Source of the DNA: a virus
Taxonomy: Duplodnaviria; Heunggongvirae; Uroviricota; Caudoviricetes
DNA length: 5,652 bases
Strand: one strand, 5' to 3'
IMG/VR virus record: IMGVR_UViG_2531839668_000014
Coordinates: 1-5,652 of that record
Shown here: positions 1 to 5,652 of the stretch, one piece after another
Layout: each line of letters opens with the position of its first letter
How positions within the stretch are numbered: the stretch's first letter is position 1
Program-made: the position numbers and the translations under genes
Notes under the pieces: generated by a model
Database searches by the model: none
What the model saw: only the letters and a program-made list of their open reading frames with translations
What the model was told of the DNA's origin: nothing

Positions 1-112
1 AACTGAAGTTGCCCTGAAAATGAAATTTTTTTGCACAACCGCAGAACTTTTCCGCAGGGCATCAGTCTTAATTAGTGCCACTGCTTTTCTTTGATGTCCC
101 CATTTTGTGGAG

Positions 113-155
113 CCCATCAACCCCGCCATTTCGGTTCAAGGTTGATGGGTTTTTT
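113..155 (+). terminator. Rho-independent terminator: 10-bp perfect stem CCCATCAACC (113-122) / GGTTGATGGG (140-149), 17-nt loop, then TTTTTT (150-155)
   Basis: Read directly from the sequence. The T-run follows the hairpin only on the plus strand; on the minus strand the hairpin is followed by CTCCACAAAATGG, which is not U-rich. It therefore most likely terminates a plus-strand gene lying to the left of the window, not ogr. Confidence 0.55.
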
Positions 156-235
156 GTTGCCTGAAATTTAAGCTGTTTAAAATCATGATGTTAGAAGCAC
201 TATTCTTTAACGATGGCGACAAAATGGCGGCAGCG

Positions 236-454
236 TCAAAGAGAGAGCGCCACCTGTCCTGATTTCATTGGATGCGGCTGAACCGGATTTGACTCTTTTG
301 GCGTTGCAATCGAACGAACAAAAGTTTCATGGGTAACAAAAGTATGGCTGCAGTTAATGTTCTGGCACTGGTTGTAACGCTCTTTGGTCAATGAAGATAC
401 CTGAAAACTGCTGCGAGTATGGGCGGCACTTCCACACAGTGGGCAAATCATCAT
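236..454 (-). CDS. ogr: Ogr/Delta-family zinc-finger late-gene transcriptional activator (P2 Ogr-like), 72 aa from ATG 454
   Basis: The translation MMICPLCGSAAHTRSS...KERYNQCQNINCSHTF...VQPHP carries the C-x2-C ... C-x4-C zinc-finger spacing and the KERY(H/N)QCQN(V/I)NC motif of P2 Ogr / 186 B / P4 Delta. The ORF track starts at GTG 487 (83 aa), but ATG 454 is preceded by GGGGAGAG 8 nt upstream and gives the canonical 72-aa length. It lies downstream of D, as in P2. Confidence 0.85.
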   Translation of the reverse strand: MMICPLCGSAAHTRSSFQVSSLTKERYNQCQNINCSHTFVTHETFVRSIATPKESNPVQPHPMKSGQVALSL

Positions 455-491
455 TTTTCGAGCTCTCCCCATTTTTGCTAAATTCACAATA

Positions 492-519
492 ATGATACCG
501 CATTATTCCATTTTGAAAA
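492..519 (-). promoter_or_regulatory. Candidate sigma70 promoter for ogr (-35 TTTTCA at 519-514, 16-nt spacer, -10 TATCAT at 497-492)
   Basis: Hexamers read on the minus strand in the D-ogr intergenic region. The -35 is weak, so this is a sequence-only guess. Confidence 0.25.
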
Positions 520-544
520 CTTAAAAGTTTTCCATTGCGAAGAA

Positions 545-1645
545 TCATTCCATTTCGAAATCATCAATCCTCACTTCAAGCTCCAGACTGGTCGTAAAAC
601 CGTTATCCGGGCTGACATTATGCGTCAGGGTGGTAATGGTCCATTCCGCATCATCTATTGGCTGTTTAAAGCCACTGACTTTCACTGGCATTTCCGTGTA
701 GAGATCTGCCCGACCTTCCGCCAGTTGTAGCGAGAATGACGCAACACCGCGTTGCAGGCGTTCCCACTGCATTTTCGCCGCACGTTCGGCGTTGCTCCGG
801 TTGGCATAAGTGCGATTAAGTACCAGCACGTTTTCATCCGTACCCACCAGGTAATCGCCCTGCTTCGCTTCCGGCTCTTTCTTCTGCTTTGCAGTCCTGC
901 GCTTACGCTTCACCGTGGTGCTTTCTTTCTTCGCGGGTTCGCGGGTATGCAACCAGCTGGCAATTACGCCCGTGTAGGCTCCGCGATCTGCCAGGGTAAA
1001 GCGGTGACTGTCGCCGTCCTTACGTGTGATAGTGATAACCGGTAATGGTTTACCACTGGCGCTTTTACCCTGCCCCTGCCGGATGAATAACAGATTGCCA
1101 TTTTTCACCGACGCAATAGCACCGTACTGGCGCGCCAGCCGCATCAGAAAACTGCCGTCACTCTCATTAGTCTGGTCTATATGCTCCACGGGTTTATCCG
1201 ACAGGTCCTCACCCAGTGCCATCTTCAGTTTGTGCCGCGCAGCTATTTCCTTCACCACTTCCCCAACGGTGGTCTTGTGCCACGATTTTTCACGGCGGGT
1301 ATTCAGCGTTTCACGAAAATCAGCACTTCGCGCCCGGATAGTCAGGCGGTCCGGTGCGCCAGTGTGTTCAATCTCGTCCACCGTGAATGCCCCTTTCGGG
1401 AAAAGCGGCTGCCCCTTCCAGCCCAGCGCCAGCGTAATGACCGCACCACGGCGCGGCAGCGCTATTTTTCCATCGGCGTCGTCCAGCTCCAGATCAAGCT
1501 GGTCCGCTTCAAAGCCCCGGTTATCCGTCAGCGTCAGCCTCATCAGGCGGTTATCCAGCACAGTGGTGATATCCCTGCCCTCAATACTGATGCTGAATGC
1601 GGGAGTTTTGTTGCCTTTGTTAAGCAGTTCAGAGCTGAAATTCAC
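545..1645 (-). CDS. D: P2 gpD-like tail protein (late control gene D family), 366 aa
   Basis: The translation contains blocks I recall from P2 gpD (LTLTDNRGFEADQLD, TIRARSADFR, GAYTGV, a lysine/arginine-rich linker, VKVSGFK, GFTTSLELEVR). It starts at GTG 1645, which overlaps the TGA stop of the upstream gene (GTGA), with GGGAGGG 9 nt upstream. The length is close to full-length P2 D. Confidence 0.9.
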   Translation of the reverse strand: MNFSSELLNKGNKTPAFSISIEGRDITTVLDNRLMRLTLTDNRGFEADQLDLELDDADGKIALPRRGAVITLALGWKGQPLFPKGAFTVDEIEHTGAPDRLTIRARSADFRETLNTRREKSWHKTTVGEVVKEIAARHKLKMALGEDLSDKPVEHIDQTNESDGSFLMRLARQYGAIASVKNGNLLFIRQGQGKSASGKPLPVITITRKDGDSHRFTLADRGAYTGVIASWLHTREPAKKESTTVKRKRRTAKQKKEPEAKQGDYLVGTDENVLVLNRTYANRSNAERAAKMQWERLQRGVASFSLQLAEGRADLYTEMPVKVSGFKQPIDDAEWTITTLTHNVSPDNGFTTSLELEVRIDDFEME

Positions 1646-2127
1646 GACAGCAGCCCTCCCACCGTTTTACTGATATCACTTAAGGCAGATGTTGCCGTGT
1701 CCTGCAGATTATTCAGTTGCGTACTGAGATCACCGAACATATCGGACAAGGATTCATCCACCCGTTTGAGCGACAGGGTGAACTCAATCCGGCGCGGCAT
1801 ACCGTCGCGGAAAAACTCCGTTTTAGTCAGATTCAGTCCCTCAATCACATACATGCCGTAAATCGTGCCGCTGCCTTCAATCAGGGGCCATGCTTTTCCC
1901 TGTTCTGCCATCTGCTCCAGAGCCAGCAACGACAGCCTGCCGCCCGTTATCTCCGGCATAAGAACTCCAGAAAGCGTCAGCATGTCGTTGTCCGGTCCCA
2001 GAAACTGCGTGGACGGACGACGGTTTACCCGGCTGTTTGCCGCATGTCGCCAGCTGCGTTGATACTGCAGTTCCTGATACGGAACGGTGCGCAGCATAAA
2101 CACGTACAATCCCAGCACCATCATCAT
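1642..2127 (-). CDS. U: P2 gpU-like tail protein, 161 aa
   Basis: Its size and position between tape measure and D match P2 gpU. The ATG start at 2127 overlaps the stop of the upstream ORF (ATGA). Confidence 0.85.
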   Translation of the reverse strand: MMMVLGLYVFMLRTVPYQELQYQRSWRHAANSRVNRRPSTQFLGPDNDMLTLSGVLMPEITGGRLSLLALEQMAEQGKAWPLIEGSGTIYGMYVIEGLNLTKTEFFRDGMPRRIEFTLSLKRVDESLSDMFGDLSTQLNNLQDTATSALSDISKTVGGLLS

Positions 2128-3404
2128 GCGTCGTATCCCCCCTGATCGCTGTAGTTACTCCTGGCTTTTGCCTTCAGCCTGCGTTCACGTTCATCAAGCT
2201 GGCGTGCCACCTCCCGCGCAATATCCTGCGCACTTTGTCCTGGCTGCGTCTGGATGATGATCTGCGTCGGTGCCTCAATCCGGTAAACGGGCGGCACAGT
2301 GGCTGCGCGACTCACCATCGCTTCACCGCCTTTCGCGGGAAGCGCCACAGGATGCAACGGTGGAAGCTCTGCTGGCGCGGCAGCAACGCCCATCATTCCG
2401 GCAACAACGGCAGCTAGTGCAGCTGTATTTCTCCGGCTGGTCACATTTGCCGGGCCGTTAACAATTTCCGGCCCGTTTTCACCGACGATGCCAAACTGCC
2501 CGCGCGGGATATAGCCGCCGCTGTCATACATCCCCGCAAAGCCATATCCCCATGACGGAAAACCACCCGATGGCATCATCACTTTACCGTCTGCATTCAC
2601 CGTCGCAGGTTGCTGACGCGTCACGCTTTCCGGCAGTTTCGCCTTTGCAGCCTCTTTACTGACAATGCCGAGTTTCTCCAGCAACCAGGAAACGCCGGAT
2701 TTCAGGGAGTCCAGCGGATGCATGACCATATTCAGCCCTTCCGCCAGTGCCTCCCCGAATCGTCGCCCCATTGCCGCTGCACTCTGCAGTTCGGCAGAGG
2801 TCGACTTAACGGGCGTCAGCAGATCAGTAAACCAGCCCCACAGCGCCTGTACTTTGTCGCCAATCCACTGAAACACAGGCTTAAGTGGTTCGAATGCAGC
2901 ACTGATGGGACCTGCCGCCGCTTTGAATCCTTCCACCACGCCGCCGAGAAATGCGGTGATGGGTTGCCAGTATTTCCAGACAACCAGCGCCACGCCCGCC
3001 AGTGCAGTAACCACAAGACCTATCGGACTGAGCAGAGCACCTAACAGACCAGATAACAGGGCTTTCATGCCTGTTTTTTTACCTTCAGCAGTCACTGCGC
3101 CGATGATATTGGTCGTGGTTTCTTCTTCCGTTTCACCCTGCGGCACACGCACAACAACGGTCACGGGTTTTGCCTGGTCAGCGATGGCATCCAGCGAACG
3201 GGCCAGCGTGCCGGACTCACCCGCTTTACCGCTGGCAGTCAGCACATCAGTGATCAGCACGGGTTTATTAAGAGGAAACATTTTTGCATCGGCATCATCG
3301 CCCGTGCAGACCATACCCACGATGGCGGTGCTCACCGTGGTAATGGATCGGGTGCCTTCGTTGATTTCAACAACGCGCACCCCGTGGTGGTAATCCTGAG
3401 CCAT
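2124..3404 (-). CDS. In-frame fusion ORF (426 aa): N-terminal ~115 aa of tail sheath (P2 FI-like) joined to C-terminal ~310 aa of tail tape-measure protein (P2 T-like)
   Basis: The N-terminus MAQDYHHGVRVVEINEGTRSITTVSTAIVGMVCT...FPLNKPVLIT...KPVTVV matches the P2 sheath N-terminus (MSDYHHGVQVLEINEGTR...) as I recall it. After about residue 117 (...GMKALL) the sequence becomes hydrophobic and Gly/Ala-rich, like a tape-measure C-terminal region, and the ORF ends translationally coupled to gpU. A strong RBS (AGGAGG, 9 nt) precedes ATG 3404. At 426 aa it is too short for either a sheath plus tube or an intact tape measure. Confidence 0.75.
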   Translation of the reverse strand: MAQDYHHGVRVVEINEGTRSITTVSTAIVGMVCTGDDADAKMFPLNKPVLITDVLTASGKAGESGTLARSLDAIADQAKPVTVVVRVPQGETEEETTTNIIGAVTAEGKKTGMKALLSGLLGALLSPIGLVVTALAGVALVVWKYWQPITAFLGGVVEGFKAAAGPISAAFEPLKPVFQWIGDKVQALWGWFTDLLTPVKSTSAELQSAAAMGRRFGEALAEGLNMVMHPLDSLKSGVSWLLEKLGIVSKEAAKAKLPESVTRQQPATVNADGKVMMPSGGFPSWGYGFAGMYDSGGYIPRGQFGIVGENGPEIVNGPANVTSRRNTAALAAVVAGMMGVAAAPAELPPLHPVALPAKGGEAMVSRAATVPPVYRIEAPTQIIIQTQPGQSAQDIAREVARQLDERERRLKAKARSNYSDQGGYDA

Positions 3405-3480
3405 AGCGGCGAACCTCCTGATTGGATTAGGCTTCGCCCTATGTTGAAGTGATTGTGCCCGACAAACAGCTAAGTGTAGT

Positions 3481-3498
3481 TGTACAGTTATTCACACA
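3481..3498 (-). promoter_or_regulatory. TGT-N12-ACA dyad, candidate Ogr/Delta binding site of a P2-type late promoter driving the sheath-fusion/U/D operon
   Basis: TGTACAGTTATTCACACA at 3481-3498 lies 78-95 bp upstream of the sheath-type ATG at 3404. P2/186/P4 late promoters carry a TGT-N12-ACA element centred near -55. The -10 hexamer is not confidently assigned (CACAAT at 3457-3452 on the minus strand is one option). Confidence 0.45.
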
Positions 3499-3546
3499 AA
3501 ATGACGGTATTTGTCTACTTGCAGGGATAATCAAAATTATGCTGAT

Positions 3547-4113
3547 TCAGGGGGATTCACTGCTCTTATTTGCCGGAAATTTTCTATAAATGGTAGAAAC
3601 GCCCACATCAAAAATCAGTGCAATACGCTGTCTTGATTCTCCGGCCTCTAGTAAACGTCCAATCTGTGCCCACTGTTCGGTGGTCAACTTAGGACGGCGT
3701 CCACCTACTCTGCCTTTGTCGCGAGCTGCAGCAATCCCCGCTCTGGTACGTTCAACTATCAGTTCGCGTTCCATTTCAGCCAGGGCACCCATGACATGAA
3801 AAAAGAAACGGCCCATTGGGGTACTGGTATCAATACTGTCAGTCAGGCTTCGGAAATTCACGCCACGCTGGCGCAACTCTTCTATCAGCGTAACAAGATG
3901 CCGCATACTGCGTCCCAACCTGTCCAGCTTCCAGACAACCAGCGTGTCTCCTGCCGATAGTGTCCTGAGTAGTTTTTTCAGCCCCGGTCTGTCGGACTTA
4001 GTGCCACTGATTTTGTCCTCAAAAATCCGCTCACATCCCGCGCAGTTCAGTGCATTACGTTGCAAATCGGTGTTCTGGTCATTTGTTGACACGCGTACAT
4101 AGCCAATAAGCAT
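3547..4113 (-). CDS. Serine DNA invertase, Gin/Pin/Cin/Hin family, 188 aa from ATG 4113
   Basis: From the third codon the translation reads MLIGYVRVSTNDQNTDLQRNAL...GDTLVVWKLDRLGRSM...PMGRFFFHVMGALAEMERELI...GRRPKL, near-identical in its motifs to Gin/Pin, including the catalytic serine in VRVSTNDQ and a C-terminal HTH. The ORF track starts at ATG 4119, but the SD AGGGGG is better spaced for ATG 4113, which gives the canonical MLIGY N-terminus. Confidence 0.9.
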   Translation of the reverse strand: MLIGYVRVSTNDQNTDLQRNALNCAGCERIFEDKISGTKSDRPGLKKLLRTLSAGDTLVVWKLDRLGRSMRHLVTLIEELRQRGVNFRSLTDSIDTSTPMGRFFFHVMGALAEMERELIVERTRAGIAAARDKGRVGGRRPKLTTEQWAQIGRLLEAGESRQRIALIFDVGVSTIYRKFPANKSSESP

Positions 4114-4140
4114 GATCATCCCCCTGAATAAAAACCGGAG

Positions 4141-4674
4141 ATGATGCCAGTTAGCTGTTACCTCTGCATTTTCTTAAACGTTGGTTTGGGAGAAGGCTCA
4201 GCATTACCTGTTGGGGTGCCTGTTCCGTGGCCTTCAGCCACTCCGCCAACAGGCTGGTTGAAATGCAATGGTGCGGCTTTTTCTGCTGAAGAATACCCGG
4301 AACTGGCAAAGGCTTACCCGACAAATAAATTGCCTGATTTACGCGGTGAGTTTATTCGTGGCTGGGATGACGGACGTGGAGTGGATAACGGAAGGGGATT
4401 ATTAACGCTTCAGGACGGTGCGATTGTCAGTCATAACCACTATTGGGGAATCTGGACTTCACGAACTAACGACCAGACTCTGGAAAGTTTTACAGGCACC
4501 ACGATTTTAAAACAAATCACGCCCCTGTCTCCGGCCATTGACTTCGATAATTACCCAATTCCCAACCCGGCTATTACAGAGGGTGGTGTTGTTGCGGCAA
4601 CGACTAAACCTGCAGGTGCGAATGAAACACGCCCACGAAATGTCGCTTTTAACTATATTGTGAGGGCTGCATAA
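4141..4674 (+). CDS. Tail-fibre C-terminal variable (receptor-binding) cassette, Mu S / P1 S / P2 H C-terminus-like; silent alternate cassette in this orientation
   Basis: It contains PVGVPVPWPS...GW...G..F...YP.L...YP...LPDLRGEFIRGW and ends NVAFNYIVRAA, matching the Mu S C-terminal ending (NIAFNYIVRLA) as I recall it. The frame is open across the crossover site. The ATG at 4141 has GGAG immediately adjacent with no spacer, so independent initiation is unlikely; the functional extent is probably about 4195-4674. Confidence 0.7.
   Translation: MMPVSCYLCIFLNVGLGEGSALPVGVPVPWPSATPPTGWLKCNGAAFSAEEYPELAKAYPTNKLPDLRGEFIRGWDDGRGVDNGRGLLTLQDGAIVSHNHYWGIWTSRTNDQTLESFTGTTILKQITPLSPAIDFDNYPIPNPAITEGGVVAATTKPAGANETRPRNVAFNYIVRAA
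4169..4194. other. gix/cix/hix-like 26-bp invertase crossover site (TTTTCTTAAACG-TT-GGTTTGGGAGAA), left boundary of the invertible segment
   Basis: On the bottom strand this reads TTCTCCCAAACC-AA-CGTTTAAGAAAA. One half-site matches the recalled TTATCCAAAACC half-site at 10 of 12 positions, with the inner AAACC/GGTTT-type palindrome and a 2-bp core. It sits between the invertase start and the fibre C-terminal cassette, just upstream of the conserved LPVGVPVPWPS start of the variable fibre domain, as in the Mu G segment. Confidence 0.5.
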
Positions 4675-5276
4675 TGAATAACGCAGAATTAAACAGTGAA
4701 TTAATTGCCACTATGGCAGGAGAAATTACTGTTTATAACTTTGATGTCATGAGTCGGGAATATATTTCAGCTTCAACTGAATATCTTGCTATTGGTGTCG
4801 GCATTCCGGCATATTCCTGTTTAGATGCCCCAGGCGCATACAAAGCTGGTTATGCAATCTGCCGATCTGCAGATTTTAACTCATGGGAATATGTGCCAGA
4901 CCATCGCGGTGAAATCGTCTTTAGCACCGAAACAGGAGAATCAAAAGAAATCACAGCTCCGGGTGATTACCCTGATAATACAACCACTATCGCCCCGTTA
5001 ACGCCATACGATAAATGGGATGGTGAGAAATGGGTGACAGATACTGAGGCACAGCATAATGCCGCAGTAGACGCGGCAGAAGCACTGCGCCAGTCACTTA
5101 TTGATGCAGCAATGGCTTCCATTAGTCTGATTCAACTGAAACTACAGGCCGGACGGAAGCTGACGCAGGCAGAAACCACCCGACTTAACGCTGTGCTGGA
5201 TTACATTGACGCGGTGACGGCAACAGATACCAGCACCGCGCCGGATGTCATCTGGCCTGAACTGCCGGAGGCGTAG
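4674..5276 (+). CDS. Tail fibre assembly chaperone (Tfa; Mu U / P2 G / lambda Tfa family), alternate cassette, 200 aa
   Basis: The start overlaps the upstream stop (TAATG), with GAGGG 6-7 nt upstream. The C-terminal motif RLNAVLDYIDAV...APDVIWPELP is typical of Tfa chaperones, and the gene is positioned directly after the fibre C-terminal cassette. Confidence 0.8.
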   Translation: MNNAELNSELIATMAGEITVYNFDVMSREYISASTEYLAIGVGIPAYSCLDAPGAYKAGYAICRSADFNSWEYVPDHRGEIVFSTETGESKEITAPGDYPDNTTTIAPLTPYDKWDGEKWVTDTEAQHNAAVDAAEALRQSLIDAAMASISLIQLKLQAGRKLTQAETTRLNAVLDYIDAVTATDTSTAPDVIWPELPEA

Positions 5277-5652
5277 GCCATTCAATATCTGGCGCACTGG
5301 AGGAATCAACCAGTTCCAGTGCGTCCAGATAATCCAGCCACAAATTATATTGCGCCAGTTCATCATCTTTCAGACGACCAATAGCGGCTTTACCGGGCCA
5401 TTGCTTACTGTTCATGTATTCGTTGGCCTGGTTAATTAGTAGCTGTCTTTCTGATTCAGTAATTTCAATAAGTTCTTCATGCGTGGGTGGAGGAATATCT
5501 GCCCACGCAGGCAGCCCATCATCTCCGGCAATACGGATTTTTCCTTGTGGCGGTTCAGCCATAAACTCACTGATAATATTTTGATTTACTTCCTTAGCGT
5601 CTGATAAATCCCATCCCTCTGATTTATATTTATCAATCATATCCACAGGGAA
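5248..5652 (-). CDS. Tail fibre assembly chaperone (Tfa), opposite orientation and probably the currently expressed copy; 5' end at or beyond the window edge
   Basis: The C-terminal motif QYNLWLDYLDAL...SAPDIEWPTPP parallels the plus-strand Tfa. The frame remains open to the window end (the ORF track starts at GTG 5646; an ATG lies at 5640), so the true start is uncertain. Confidence 0.7.
   Translation of the reverse strand, partial: FPVDMIDKYKSEGWDLSDAKEVNQNIISEFMAEPPQGKIRIAGDDGLPAWADIPPPTHEELIEITESERQLLINQANEYMNSKQWPGKAAIGRLKDDELAQYNLWLDYLDALELVDSSSAPDIEWPTPPAVQAR

Follow-up and report, generated by a model that had tools for sequence, protein, structure and literature searches.

The right-hand part of the window, ie of the 5,652-nt stretch of DNA that was analysed, raises the question of why a DNA invertase gene should lie beside tail-fibre chaperone genes on both strands inside a P2-like tail module. 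Positions 3547-5652 very probably belong to an invertible tail-fibre (host-range) switch of the Pin/Gin family, of which they form the part nearest the invertase; the switch is placed in the slot between the fibre and sheath genes of a decayed P2-like prophage. The device itself, a DNA invertase acting on a flip-flop segment with alternative tail-fibre tips, is already known and common. The window covers the left two-thirds of the switch, and the source contig stops 2 nt beyond 5652, inside the segment. All of the parts visible in the window are intact. An earlier note on this DNA had described a Gin/Pin/Cin-type invertase between the fibre genes and the sheath gene, tail-fibre assembly (Tfa) genes on both strands, a plus-strand fibre C-terminal cassette and a crossover site; each is present, displaced by a few bases at most from the position given there (Table 1).

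Table 1. Features of the switch and of the adjoining prophage remnant (window coordinates).
Feature	Position	Strand	Basis
Fusion ORF, sheath (FI) N-terminus and tape-measure (T) C-terminus	2124-3404	-	Gp18_domIII_N, residues 27-87 only
Intergenic region, invertase/sheath remnant, with P2 late-promoter-type dyad TGT-N12-ACA at 3498->3481	3405-3546	-	Motif
Serine DNA invertase, Pin/Gin/Cin/Hin group, 188 aa, intact	3547-4113	-	Pfam, Gin structure match, identity
Candidate recombinational enhancer (Fis-bound), first ~210 nt of invertase gene	3904-4113	-	Inferred
Leader with ATG ATG, opening an ORF through the crossover site into the adjoining cassette	4141-4194	+	ORF 4141-4674
Invertase-proximal crossover site, pix/gix type, 26 bp	4169-4194		Sequence match, breakpoints in relatives
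Fibre C-terminal tip 1, Collar domain, stfE-like	4195-4674	+	Pfam Collar, E = 9e-16
Assembly chaperone for tip 1, TfaE-like, 200 aa	4674-5276	+	Caudo_TAP, E = 4e-32
Assembly chaperone for tip 2, 147 aa in relatives (Tfa147 of L003)	5248-5652	-	Caudo_TAP, E = 1e-29

The invertase lies in an ORF extending over 3547-4119 on the minus strand, and its start is likely to be the ATG at 4113 (MLIGYVRVS...), as in Gin and Pin. Resolvase (PF00239, residues 5-137, E = 7e-53) and HTH_7 (PF02796, residues 140-183, E = 1e-15) domains were both detected, and residues 1-184 match the Mu Gin structures 3UJ3 and 4M6F (E = 7e-93). The catalytic Ser9 is kept, with MLIGYVRVSTNDQ aligning with Gin in 4M6F. Identity is 84.6% to PinE of e14, compared to 75.3% to Mu Gin. 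The gene adjoins the invertible segment without being part of it and is transcribed in the direction leading away; its start is 55 nt from the crossover site at 4169. The invertases of L003 and L008, relatives that hold the segment in opposite orientations, are 100% identical to that of the window, and this enzyme probably catalyses the inversion. The enhancers of gin, cin and hin sit in the 5' part of the invertase gene. When six diverged invertase genes were compared, 13 of 51 synonymous third positions were invariant in nucleotides 1-210, against 3 of 65 in nucleotides 211-540 (Fisher p = 0.002); dependence of the switch on Fis and on an enhancer in this region is suggested. A scan of 3400-5652 found no sigma-70-like promoter for the invertase, the promoter and terminator counts over that interval were not above those of shuffled sequence, and a hairpin at 4152->4133 was not significant.

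The crossover site has the composition TTTTCTTAAACG TT GGTTTGGGAGAA, ie a 12-bp outer half, a central TT and a 12-bp inner half, with imperfect symmetry. The 26-bp sequence is single in the window, where the chance expectation is 0 at up to 3 mismatches. Of its 26 positions, 25 are the same in the pinE-proximal site of e14, and the inner half-site is identical throughout. Upstream of the first tip, the short leader that runs through the site corresponds to the start of K-12 stfE, and its ATG(ATG)CCA is kept in P2-like, e14-type and Mu-like versions; it would open the ORF at 4141-4674. The 177-aa product of that ORF, a 'phage tail protein', is a detached fibre tip and not a complete gene. With one residue differing, the tip itself is found at the C-terminal end of the H protein of L004 (513 aa), and it also ends a 286-aa H remnant in L008. 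In the window orientation it should be silent and is separated from any constant part of a fibre. The chaperone that follows it is 87.5% identical to K-12 TfaE, and exactly the same protein occurs in 206 blocks of the collection, with P2-like, Mu-like and a third kind of tail module among the places listed. The 3' ends of the two convergent Tfa genes overlap by 29 nt. The minus-strand Tfa is cut off by the end of the window and of the source contig, so that 13 codons are missing from its start. Thus the window holds the first cassette, its Tfa and most of the second Tfa, and the second cassette, a gp53-like_C tip in relatives, would lie beyond it together with the constant part of H.

The inversion was established by comparison with relatives. 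Against those in which the segment is flipped (L004, L007 and L008), positions 3050-4195 of the window align reversed and 4178-5652 forward. The two alignments share only an 18-bp core, and homology breaks exactly at the central TT, which places the breakpoints within the crossover site. The orientation of the window is found in L003, L009, L013, L001 and phage pro483, with L003 and L009 collinear with the window throughout. In every uninterrupted relative a second, inverted site is located 1872-1929 bp away; L003 and L001, both with an IS element inside the segment, have spacings of 2997 bp and about 2.7 kb, respectively. The inner half GGTTTGGGAGAA is common to both sites of each relative, and the outer halves with their flanks, one on the invertase side and one on the H side, swap partners between the two orientations. 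No third site of the shufflon type was found: one P2-like locus of the enteropathogenic E. coli (EPEC) strain E2348/69 has three sites, whereas the relatives of the window that hold the whole segment have two each. The relatives prove reciprocal exchange exactly at the 26-bp sites, and the segment is invertible. The proposal of a G-segment-like host-range switch is upheld by this site-exact inversion among near-identical relatives.

The same comparison supplies what lies to the right of the window in other genomes. A single H constant part is found with two ends: in L004 and L008 it runs into the Collar tip, and L003, L001 and pro483 have the gp53-like tip there. In L004, L001 and pro483, translation of H across the site gives ...AGLLAYLGLGE, continuing into one tip or the other. 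A fibre gene had been forecast to the right of 5652; relatives in the window orientation have one on the minus strand, in the order H(-), second site, gp53-like tip and 147-aa Tfa. Two of the relatives, L003 and L008, are the same decayed remnant in opposite orientations, with 0 mismatches in 2000 nt outside the H-side site and a shared scar where H is truncated. The switch therefore appears to keep flipping in remnants unable to make tails. The two junction types are about equally frequent in 5426 complete E. coli genomes (801 and 850 genomes). Inversion has been shown by sequencing and PCR in P2-like prophages of EPEC (PMC4272514), and Fels-2 is inverted between Salmonella LT2 and LT7 (PMC7953296).

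From these comparisons the following mechanism is proposed. The 188-aa invertase would bind two inverted 26-bp sites, that at 4169-4194 and another within fibre gene H. The second is estimated to lie 1.87-1.93 kb to the right and would carry ...TTGGTTTGGGAGAA in inverted copy near an H-type constant region; like the second tip and the constant fibre part, it is expected about 0.4-0.45 kb or more past 5652. With the assistance of host Fis, bound at the enhancer in the 5' end of the invertase gene, the enzyme would cut at the central TT, the strands would rotate and rejoin, and the segment, in which two alternative tips are arranged head to head each with its own chaperone, would be flipped. Translation of the site gives ...LLAYLGLGE..., so that H, from its constant N-terminal part, would read in frame into whichever tip faces it. 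In the state represented by the window, the Collar tip and the TfaE-like chaperone on the plus strand would point away from H, and the gp53-like tip with the minus-strand Tfa would be joined to it. Everything to the right of 5652, and the current activity of the switch in the source strain, are what we infer from the relatives; that strain may have lost the second site, the second tip and the H constant part, or may have them interrupted.

The earlier note had called the switch Mu-type. The architecture is indeed that of Mu (S, U, U', S', gin), in which the constant part lies outside the segment, two tips with their chaperones are head to head inside it, and gin is likewise outside, adjoining, and transcribed away. 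Judged by its site (25/26) and its invertase (85% identity compared to 75% for Gin), the closest relative is the Pin/P segment of e14, and Mu was rejected in that role. The gix sites of Mu differ (TTCCTGTAAACCGAGGTTTTGGATAA), no DNA similarity was detectable between the G segment and that of the window, and the segment here is about 1.9 kb compared to about 3 kb in Mu. In e14 (pinE, stfE, tfaE, tfaP, stfP) the gene order is that of the window, ie invertase, site, silent Collar-type tip (stfE), tfaE and a convergent tfaP-type chaperone, and the MG1655 reference has the same orientation. The DNA is 84-88% identical over the invertase, the 5' part of stfE and tfaE. The middle of the Collar tip has diverged from stfE, however (58.6% identity overall), and the partner tip of the relatives is only about 25% identical to StfP of e14. 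The setting also differs, as e14 is lambdoid and the window belongs to a P2-like myovirus tail module, with a constant fibre part of the P2 H type and an outer half-site TTCTCGCATACC where e14 has CTCTCGAAAACC.

Among P2-like phages (Peduoviridae), Escherichia phage pro483 (Peduovirus pro483) matches the window in gene order and orientation, with sheath, invertase, Collar tip, Tfa, Tfa(-), H(-), I and J in succession, and the identity over 3575-5652 of the window is 92%; a literature search found no paper on its invertase. In Fels-2 the invertase (fin) adjoins the inverted fibre segment (PMC7953296). Compared to pro483, Fels-2 and the EPEC prophages, the copy in the window differs in being located in a deletion remnant. 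P2 itself shares the order of the tail genes (ogr, D, U, T ... FI) and has the same accessory slot, flanked by the fibre genes and FI. The earlier contrast with P2 was correct in that the H-G pair of P2 is fixed and fun(Z) occupies this slot, between G and FI, where the window has the invertase; in the P2-like relatives of the window H ends in the invertible segment, whereas H of P2 is fixed. An invertase switch is not unusual in P2-like phages. The junction between sheath gene and invertase is present in 698 of 5426 complete E. coli genomes (about 13%, or one in eight), and since a Pin-type switch fills the Z/fun slot of P2 so often, a P2-like prophage with an invertase should not be read as an oddity.

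The prophage around the switch is clearly decayed. Genes in P2 order (ogr, D, U, T ... FI) are present, as judged by the Pfam families Ogr_Delta, Phage_GPD and Phage_P2_GpU and the sheath N-terminal domain, and the remnant adjoins rybB/ybjL. A deletion of 3972 bp, with its junction at 3050-3055 and a microhomology CAGATA, removed FII, E and E' entirely, together with the greater part of FI and the 5' part of T. By fusing sheath codons to the 3' part of T it confirms the expectation that the remnant is unable to build tails; the tail gene set (sheath, tube, E/E', full tape measure) is incomplete, and this is a remnant and not a functional module. In the collection one contig, the source contig, was found to encode the fusion protein of 2124-3404, and the deletion remnant occurs in 0 of 5426 complete E. 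coli genomes. A full P2-like prophage of 34 kb, located at the same chromosomal site, has 99.1% identity to positions 1-3055. The closest prophage at that site (L013) has 99.1% identity on the left, 97% over 3050-4386 and 92% over 4623-5652, and the window is a mosaic. There is no full-length proxy for it, because no complete E. coli genome holds at least 80% of the window in one place. A literature search on the accession of the source assembly found nothing.

Other readings of the locus were weighed against an invertible switch. Viewed alone, the window has neither a second site nor a long inverted repeat, as might be expected if a resolvase-family gene had come to lie by chance beside duplicated fibre-gene fragments in a static arrangement with no inversion system. 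The probability of this is negligible: the site matches the characterised pix site at 25 of 26 positions, both junction types occur in hundreds of genomes, and the reciprocal, site-exact inversions among relatives, L003 and L008 included, refute it. A more serious alternative accepts the switch and supposes that it is now locked, the right-hand site or the H constant part having been deleted or disrupted in the source strain so that flipping is impossible or without consequence. The intact invertase would then persist by chance or act in trans on the segments of other prophages. The 3972-bp deletion testifies to decay, the contig ends inside the segment and draft ends often mark an IS element or repeat, and IS elements lie within the segment in L001 and L003. 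Action in trans would fit the cross-reaction of invertases of this group, as PinQ and PinE each flip the P segment of e14 (PMC12529663), and the occurrence in Mu-like prophages of the same segment, 99.5-99.6% identical, with identical inner half-sites. On the other hand every visible part is intact, the invertase is the same as that of remnants found in both orientations, and the IS element inside the segment of L003 removes neither site. We regard a locked switch as unlikely, if still a reading to be taken seriously.

A different possibility is that the host, and not the phage, benefits. Kirigo et al. (2025, PMC12529663) report that in e14 a protein joining the pinE-proximal leader to the gp53-like tip, StfE2, prevents T2 from adsorbing. 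By analogy, a flip would put the gp53-like tip behind the leader (ATG 4141/4144) and produce a small StfE2-like protein that would block adsorption of T-even or other phages. The ATG of the leader is kept across diverged versions, flipped relatives encode a 136-aa ORF of leader and gp53-like tip, and flipping continues in dead remnants. However, the gp53-like tip of the relatives is only about 25% identical to the StfP tip of K-12, so the activity against T2 cannot be transferred to this switch by homology, and its transfer was rejected. Furthermore, the scan of 3400-5652 gave no promoter for the leader ORF, the conserved stretch at the leader includes the ribosome-binding site of the invertase and sequence upstream of it, which could account for the conservation, and the gp53-like tip lies outside the window. 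A domesticated anti-phage switch of this kind is considered very doubtful. The broader proposition, that a switch in a dead P2-like remnant is kept by the host either as such a device or as a source of trans-acting invertase for co-resident Mu-like or P2-like prophages, is itself improbable. The finding of the same decayed remnant in both orientations and the conserved leader ATG are compatible with it.

Read as a Pin/Gin-family fibre switch, the locus matters chiefly for annotation. Both Tfa genes belong with the invertase to one phase-variable unit, and draft assemblies tend to break or to be mis-oriented at such invertible fibre units. Flipping in tail-less remnants fits recent claims that segments of this type have been co-opted for phage defence. 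A minor feature is the intergenic dyad at 3498->3481, which may act as a late promoter element of the P2 type; its centre is 85.5 nt from the ATG, and the activator site that is annotated ahead of FI in P2 lies at 82.5 nt.

The decisive comparison was with contigs encoding an identical 200-aa tail-fibre assembly chaperone (Tfa). Two of these prophage loci, L003 and L009, are collinear with the entire stretch; against L004, L007 and L008, window positions 3050-4195 align in reverse and 4178-5652 forward. The direction changes at 4178-4195, in keeping with the crossover site that the earlier note had placed at 4169-4194 (TTTTCTTAAACG, TT and GGTTTGGGAGAA in succession), which is present as a single copy where chance is expected to give none at up to three mismatches. 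Every relative holding the whole segment has two inverted sites, with the inner half GGTTTGGGAGAA common to both and an outer half of TTTTC(T/A)TAAACG on the invertase side and TTCTC(G/A)CATACC inside the fibre gene H. The inner sequences of the two alternative fibre ends, the Collar tip (ggctctgcattacc...) and the gp53-like tip (gcggcaaaacggga...), exchange partners between two groups of loci, and a common H constant part is completed by the Collar tip at L004 and L008 and, at L003, L001 and in Escherichia phage pro483, by the gp53-like tip. Inversion among the relatives is reciprocal and site-exact, and the switch originally proposed is supported by near-identical relatives in both orientations, exchanged at the crossover sites. 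Enzyme class and site are likewise established, as are, in relatives, in-frame read-through of the site (translated as ...AGLLAYLGLGE...) and two tips with a chaperone each. The uninterrupted segment measures 1929 bp (1872 bp in L013), which puts the expected position of the missing right-hand site about 0.4-0.45 kb past position 5652.

The window has the Collar tip and its TfaE-like chaperone beside the invertase, both directed away from the expected position of H. In pro483, L001 and L013, which have the same orientation, a minus-strand H runs into the gp53-like tip and is followed by a 147-aa Tfa, matching the prediction of a minus-strand Tfa and a fibre gene past 5652. The end of the contig alone accounts for the 13 N-terminal codons missing from the minus-strand Tfa of the window; position 5652 is 2 nt from the end of AFAE02000017.1 (GCA_000194645.2), where the source assembly stops. 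To the left the contig runs into ybjL, ybjM, grxA, nfsA and rimK, so the chromosome around the prophage is of E. coli type. The window genes were called by ORF listing and Pfam scans. Their order, ogr-D-U-T...FI, is that of P2, which carries fun(Z) between G and FI, the slot the earlier note had named.

Genes called in the window
Feature	Position	Strand	Basis or remark
ogr	236-487	minus	ORF + Pfam
gpD	545-1645	minus	ORF + Pfam
gpU	1642-2127	minus	ORF + Pfam
426-aa ORF	2124-3404	minus	tail-sheath resemblance limited to residues 27-87
resolvase-family gene	3547-4119	minus	Resolvase E 7e-53, HTH_7 E 1e-15
phage Collar domain ORF	4141-4674	plus	ORF + Pfam
Tfa chaperone	4674-5276	plus	ORF + Pfam
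second Tfa, convergent	5248 to window end	minus	ORF + Pfam

At their 3' ends the convergent Tfa genes share 29 nt (5248-5276), the C-terminal codons of each lying on the strand opposite the other's. All relatives retain this overlap (10575-10603 in L003-L010), as does e14 tfaP/tfaE, and both C-termini have similar ...APD(V/I)(I/E)WP(E/T)(L/P)P... motifs.

Counted from the ATG at 4113, the invertase is 188 aa long, with the N-terminus MLIGYVRVSTNDQ and Ser9 as the catalytic residue. Its alignment with the solved structures of Mu Gin (3UJ3 and 4M6F, E 7e-93) runs end to end, and the protein is 100% identical to the invertases of L003 and L008. By analogy with the family, Ser9 would cut at the central dinucleotide, and Fis would be required together with an enhancer in the 5'-terminal part of the invertase gene. 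When six diverged invertase genes were compared, synonymous third positions were invariant at 13 of 51 in nt 1-210 and at 3 of 65 afterwards (p = 0.002), which lends indirect support to the Fis-bound enhancer that we infer there. A scan of the region identified no invertase promoter. Between the crossover site and the start of the invertase is a terminator-like hairpin (4133-4152, minus, with a T-run at 4123-4132) that could shield the invertase from segment read-through; terminator-like hits in the region were no more numerous than chance would give (4 found against 2.2 expected).

Among characterised systems the e14 Pin/P segment of K-12 comes closest, with its parts in matching order: pinE, site, stfE, tfaE, tfaP, stfP. 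Its site matches at 25 of 26 positions, and DNA identity is 84-88% across the invertase, tfaE and the 5' part of stfE. The description "Mu-type" holds for the architecture, which is that of Mu G/gin, but the Mu sites differ, no DNA similarity to Mu was found in the segment, and the invertase is nearer to e14 PinE (84.6% identity) than to Gin (75.3%). The kind of system is already known. In EPEC E2348/69, inversions of segments of about 1.8-2.2 kb in two P2-like prophages were found by sequencing and the variants confirmed by PCR (Goldberg et al. 2014, PMC4272514), and the Fels-2 fibre segment, adjoining fin, is inverted between Salmonella LT2 and LT7 (Zaworski et al. 2021, PMC7953296).

The system is also common in P2-like prophages. 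Among 5426 complete E. coli genomes, the junction of a P2-type sheath start with the invertase 3' end occurs in 698, that of the invertase flank with the Collar tip in 801 (at least 80% query coverage), and the flipped junction with the gp53-like tip in 850. Phage pro483, classified as a Peduovirus, is annotated with the layout and orientation of the window, and strain 31B19CPO012 has, at the chromosomal position occupied by the remnant, a full P2-like prophage of 34 kb that carries the switch (99.1% identity to window 1-3055). Copies of the segment 99.5-99.6% identical are found in the Mu-like prophages L005 and L010, and a third tail module, L006, is 94.7% identical across invertase and segment; in all three, the constant part and the outer half-site are particular to the element. 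The segment itself is modular.

Compared with intact relatives, 3972 bp are absent, comprising most of FI, all of FII, E and E', and the 5' part of T. The deletion ends meet at a 6-bp microhomology, CAGATA (3050-3055), and the 426-aa ORF is the scar, an in-frame fusion of the FI N-terminus and the T C-terminus. The remnant is therefore unable to make tails, as the earlier note had held. The exact fusion protein was found on one contig in the collection, AFAE02000017.1, and the deletion remnant was absent from all the complete E. coli genomes searched. A perfect TGT-N12-ACA dyad (3481-3498; minus, 3498 to 3481) has its centre 85.5 nt ahead of the FI' start, a spacing matching that of the annotated P2 activator site, 82.5 nt upstream of FI. 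With ogr intact, Ogr-type activators supplied by other P2-like or P4-like elements may therefore still act on the late promoter of the truncated FI'-T/U/D operon.

Decay has not stopped inversion elsewhere. L003 and L008 hold one and the same degraded P2-like prophage, adjoining ssrA in two genomes. Outside the H-side site they agree over 2000 nt with 0 mismatches, a stretch that takes in the scar joining a truncated H to a portal-gene fragment, and both H remnants share the starting residues VLVRMLHFTAIG. The segment orientation is nevertheless opposite (L003 9496-12492, L008 9496-11424), and inversion therefore continued once the N-terminus of H was gone. The finding speaks against such remnants being simply inert, and concerns L003 and L008 rather than the window's own copy. 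In L003 an IS with a DDE_Tnp_1 transposase lies between the gp53-like tip and its Tfa, stretching the segment to 2997 bp. TIR-domain genes adjoin the fibre scar in both remnants.

A short leader (ATG at 4141/4144) starts the ORF that crosses the invertase-proximal site. In e14, the P-segment flip is reported to join the pinE-proximal leader to the gp53-like tip as StfE2, which blocks T2 adsorption (Kirigo et al. 2025, PMC12529663). The formal counterpart in flipped relatives is a predicted 136-aa leader plus gp53-like tip protein, and with the leader conserved in P2-like, e14-type and Mu-like versions a defence role for it is conceivable. The suggestion is a tentative one, since the relatives' tip is only about 25% identical to that of K-12 and the conserved leader stretch also contains the invertase translation signals.

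Window 1-3055 is 99.1% identical to L013, at the same rybB/ybjL site, and 94.7% to L003; from the sheath remnant through invertase and segment (3050-5652) identity is 99.8% to L003 and 92-97% to L013. By these identities the window is a mosaic, a pattern suggesting that P2-like prophages resident together have recombined. Immediately left of the prophage end is a full-length RybB sRNA gene (80-158, plus; Rfam RF00110, 105 bits), the last 14 nt of which, ATGGGTTTTTTGTT (145-158), are repeated at the far end of the intact L013 prophage (39271-39284), between the integrase gene and rcdA. The P2-like phage therefore appears to use the 3' end of rybB as its integration site, restoring the terminator of the gene.
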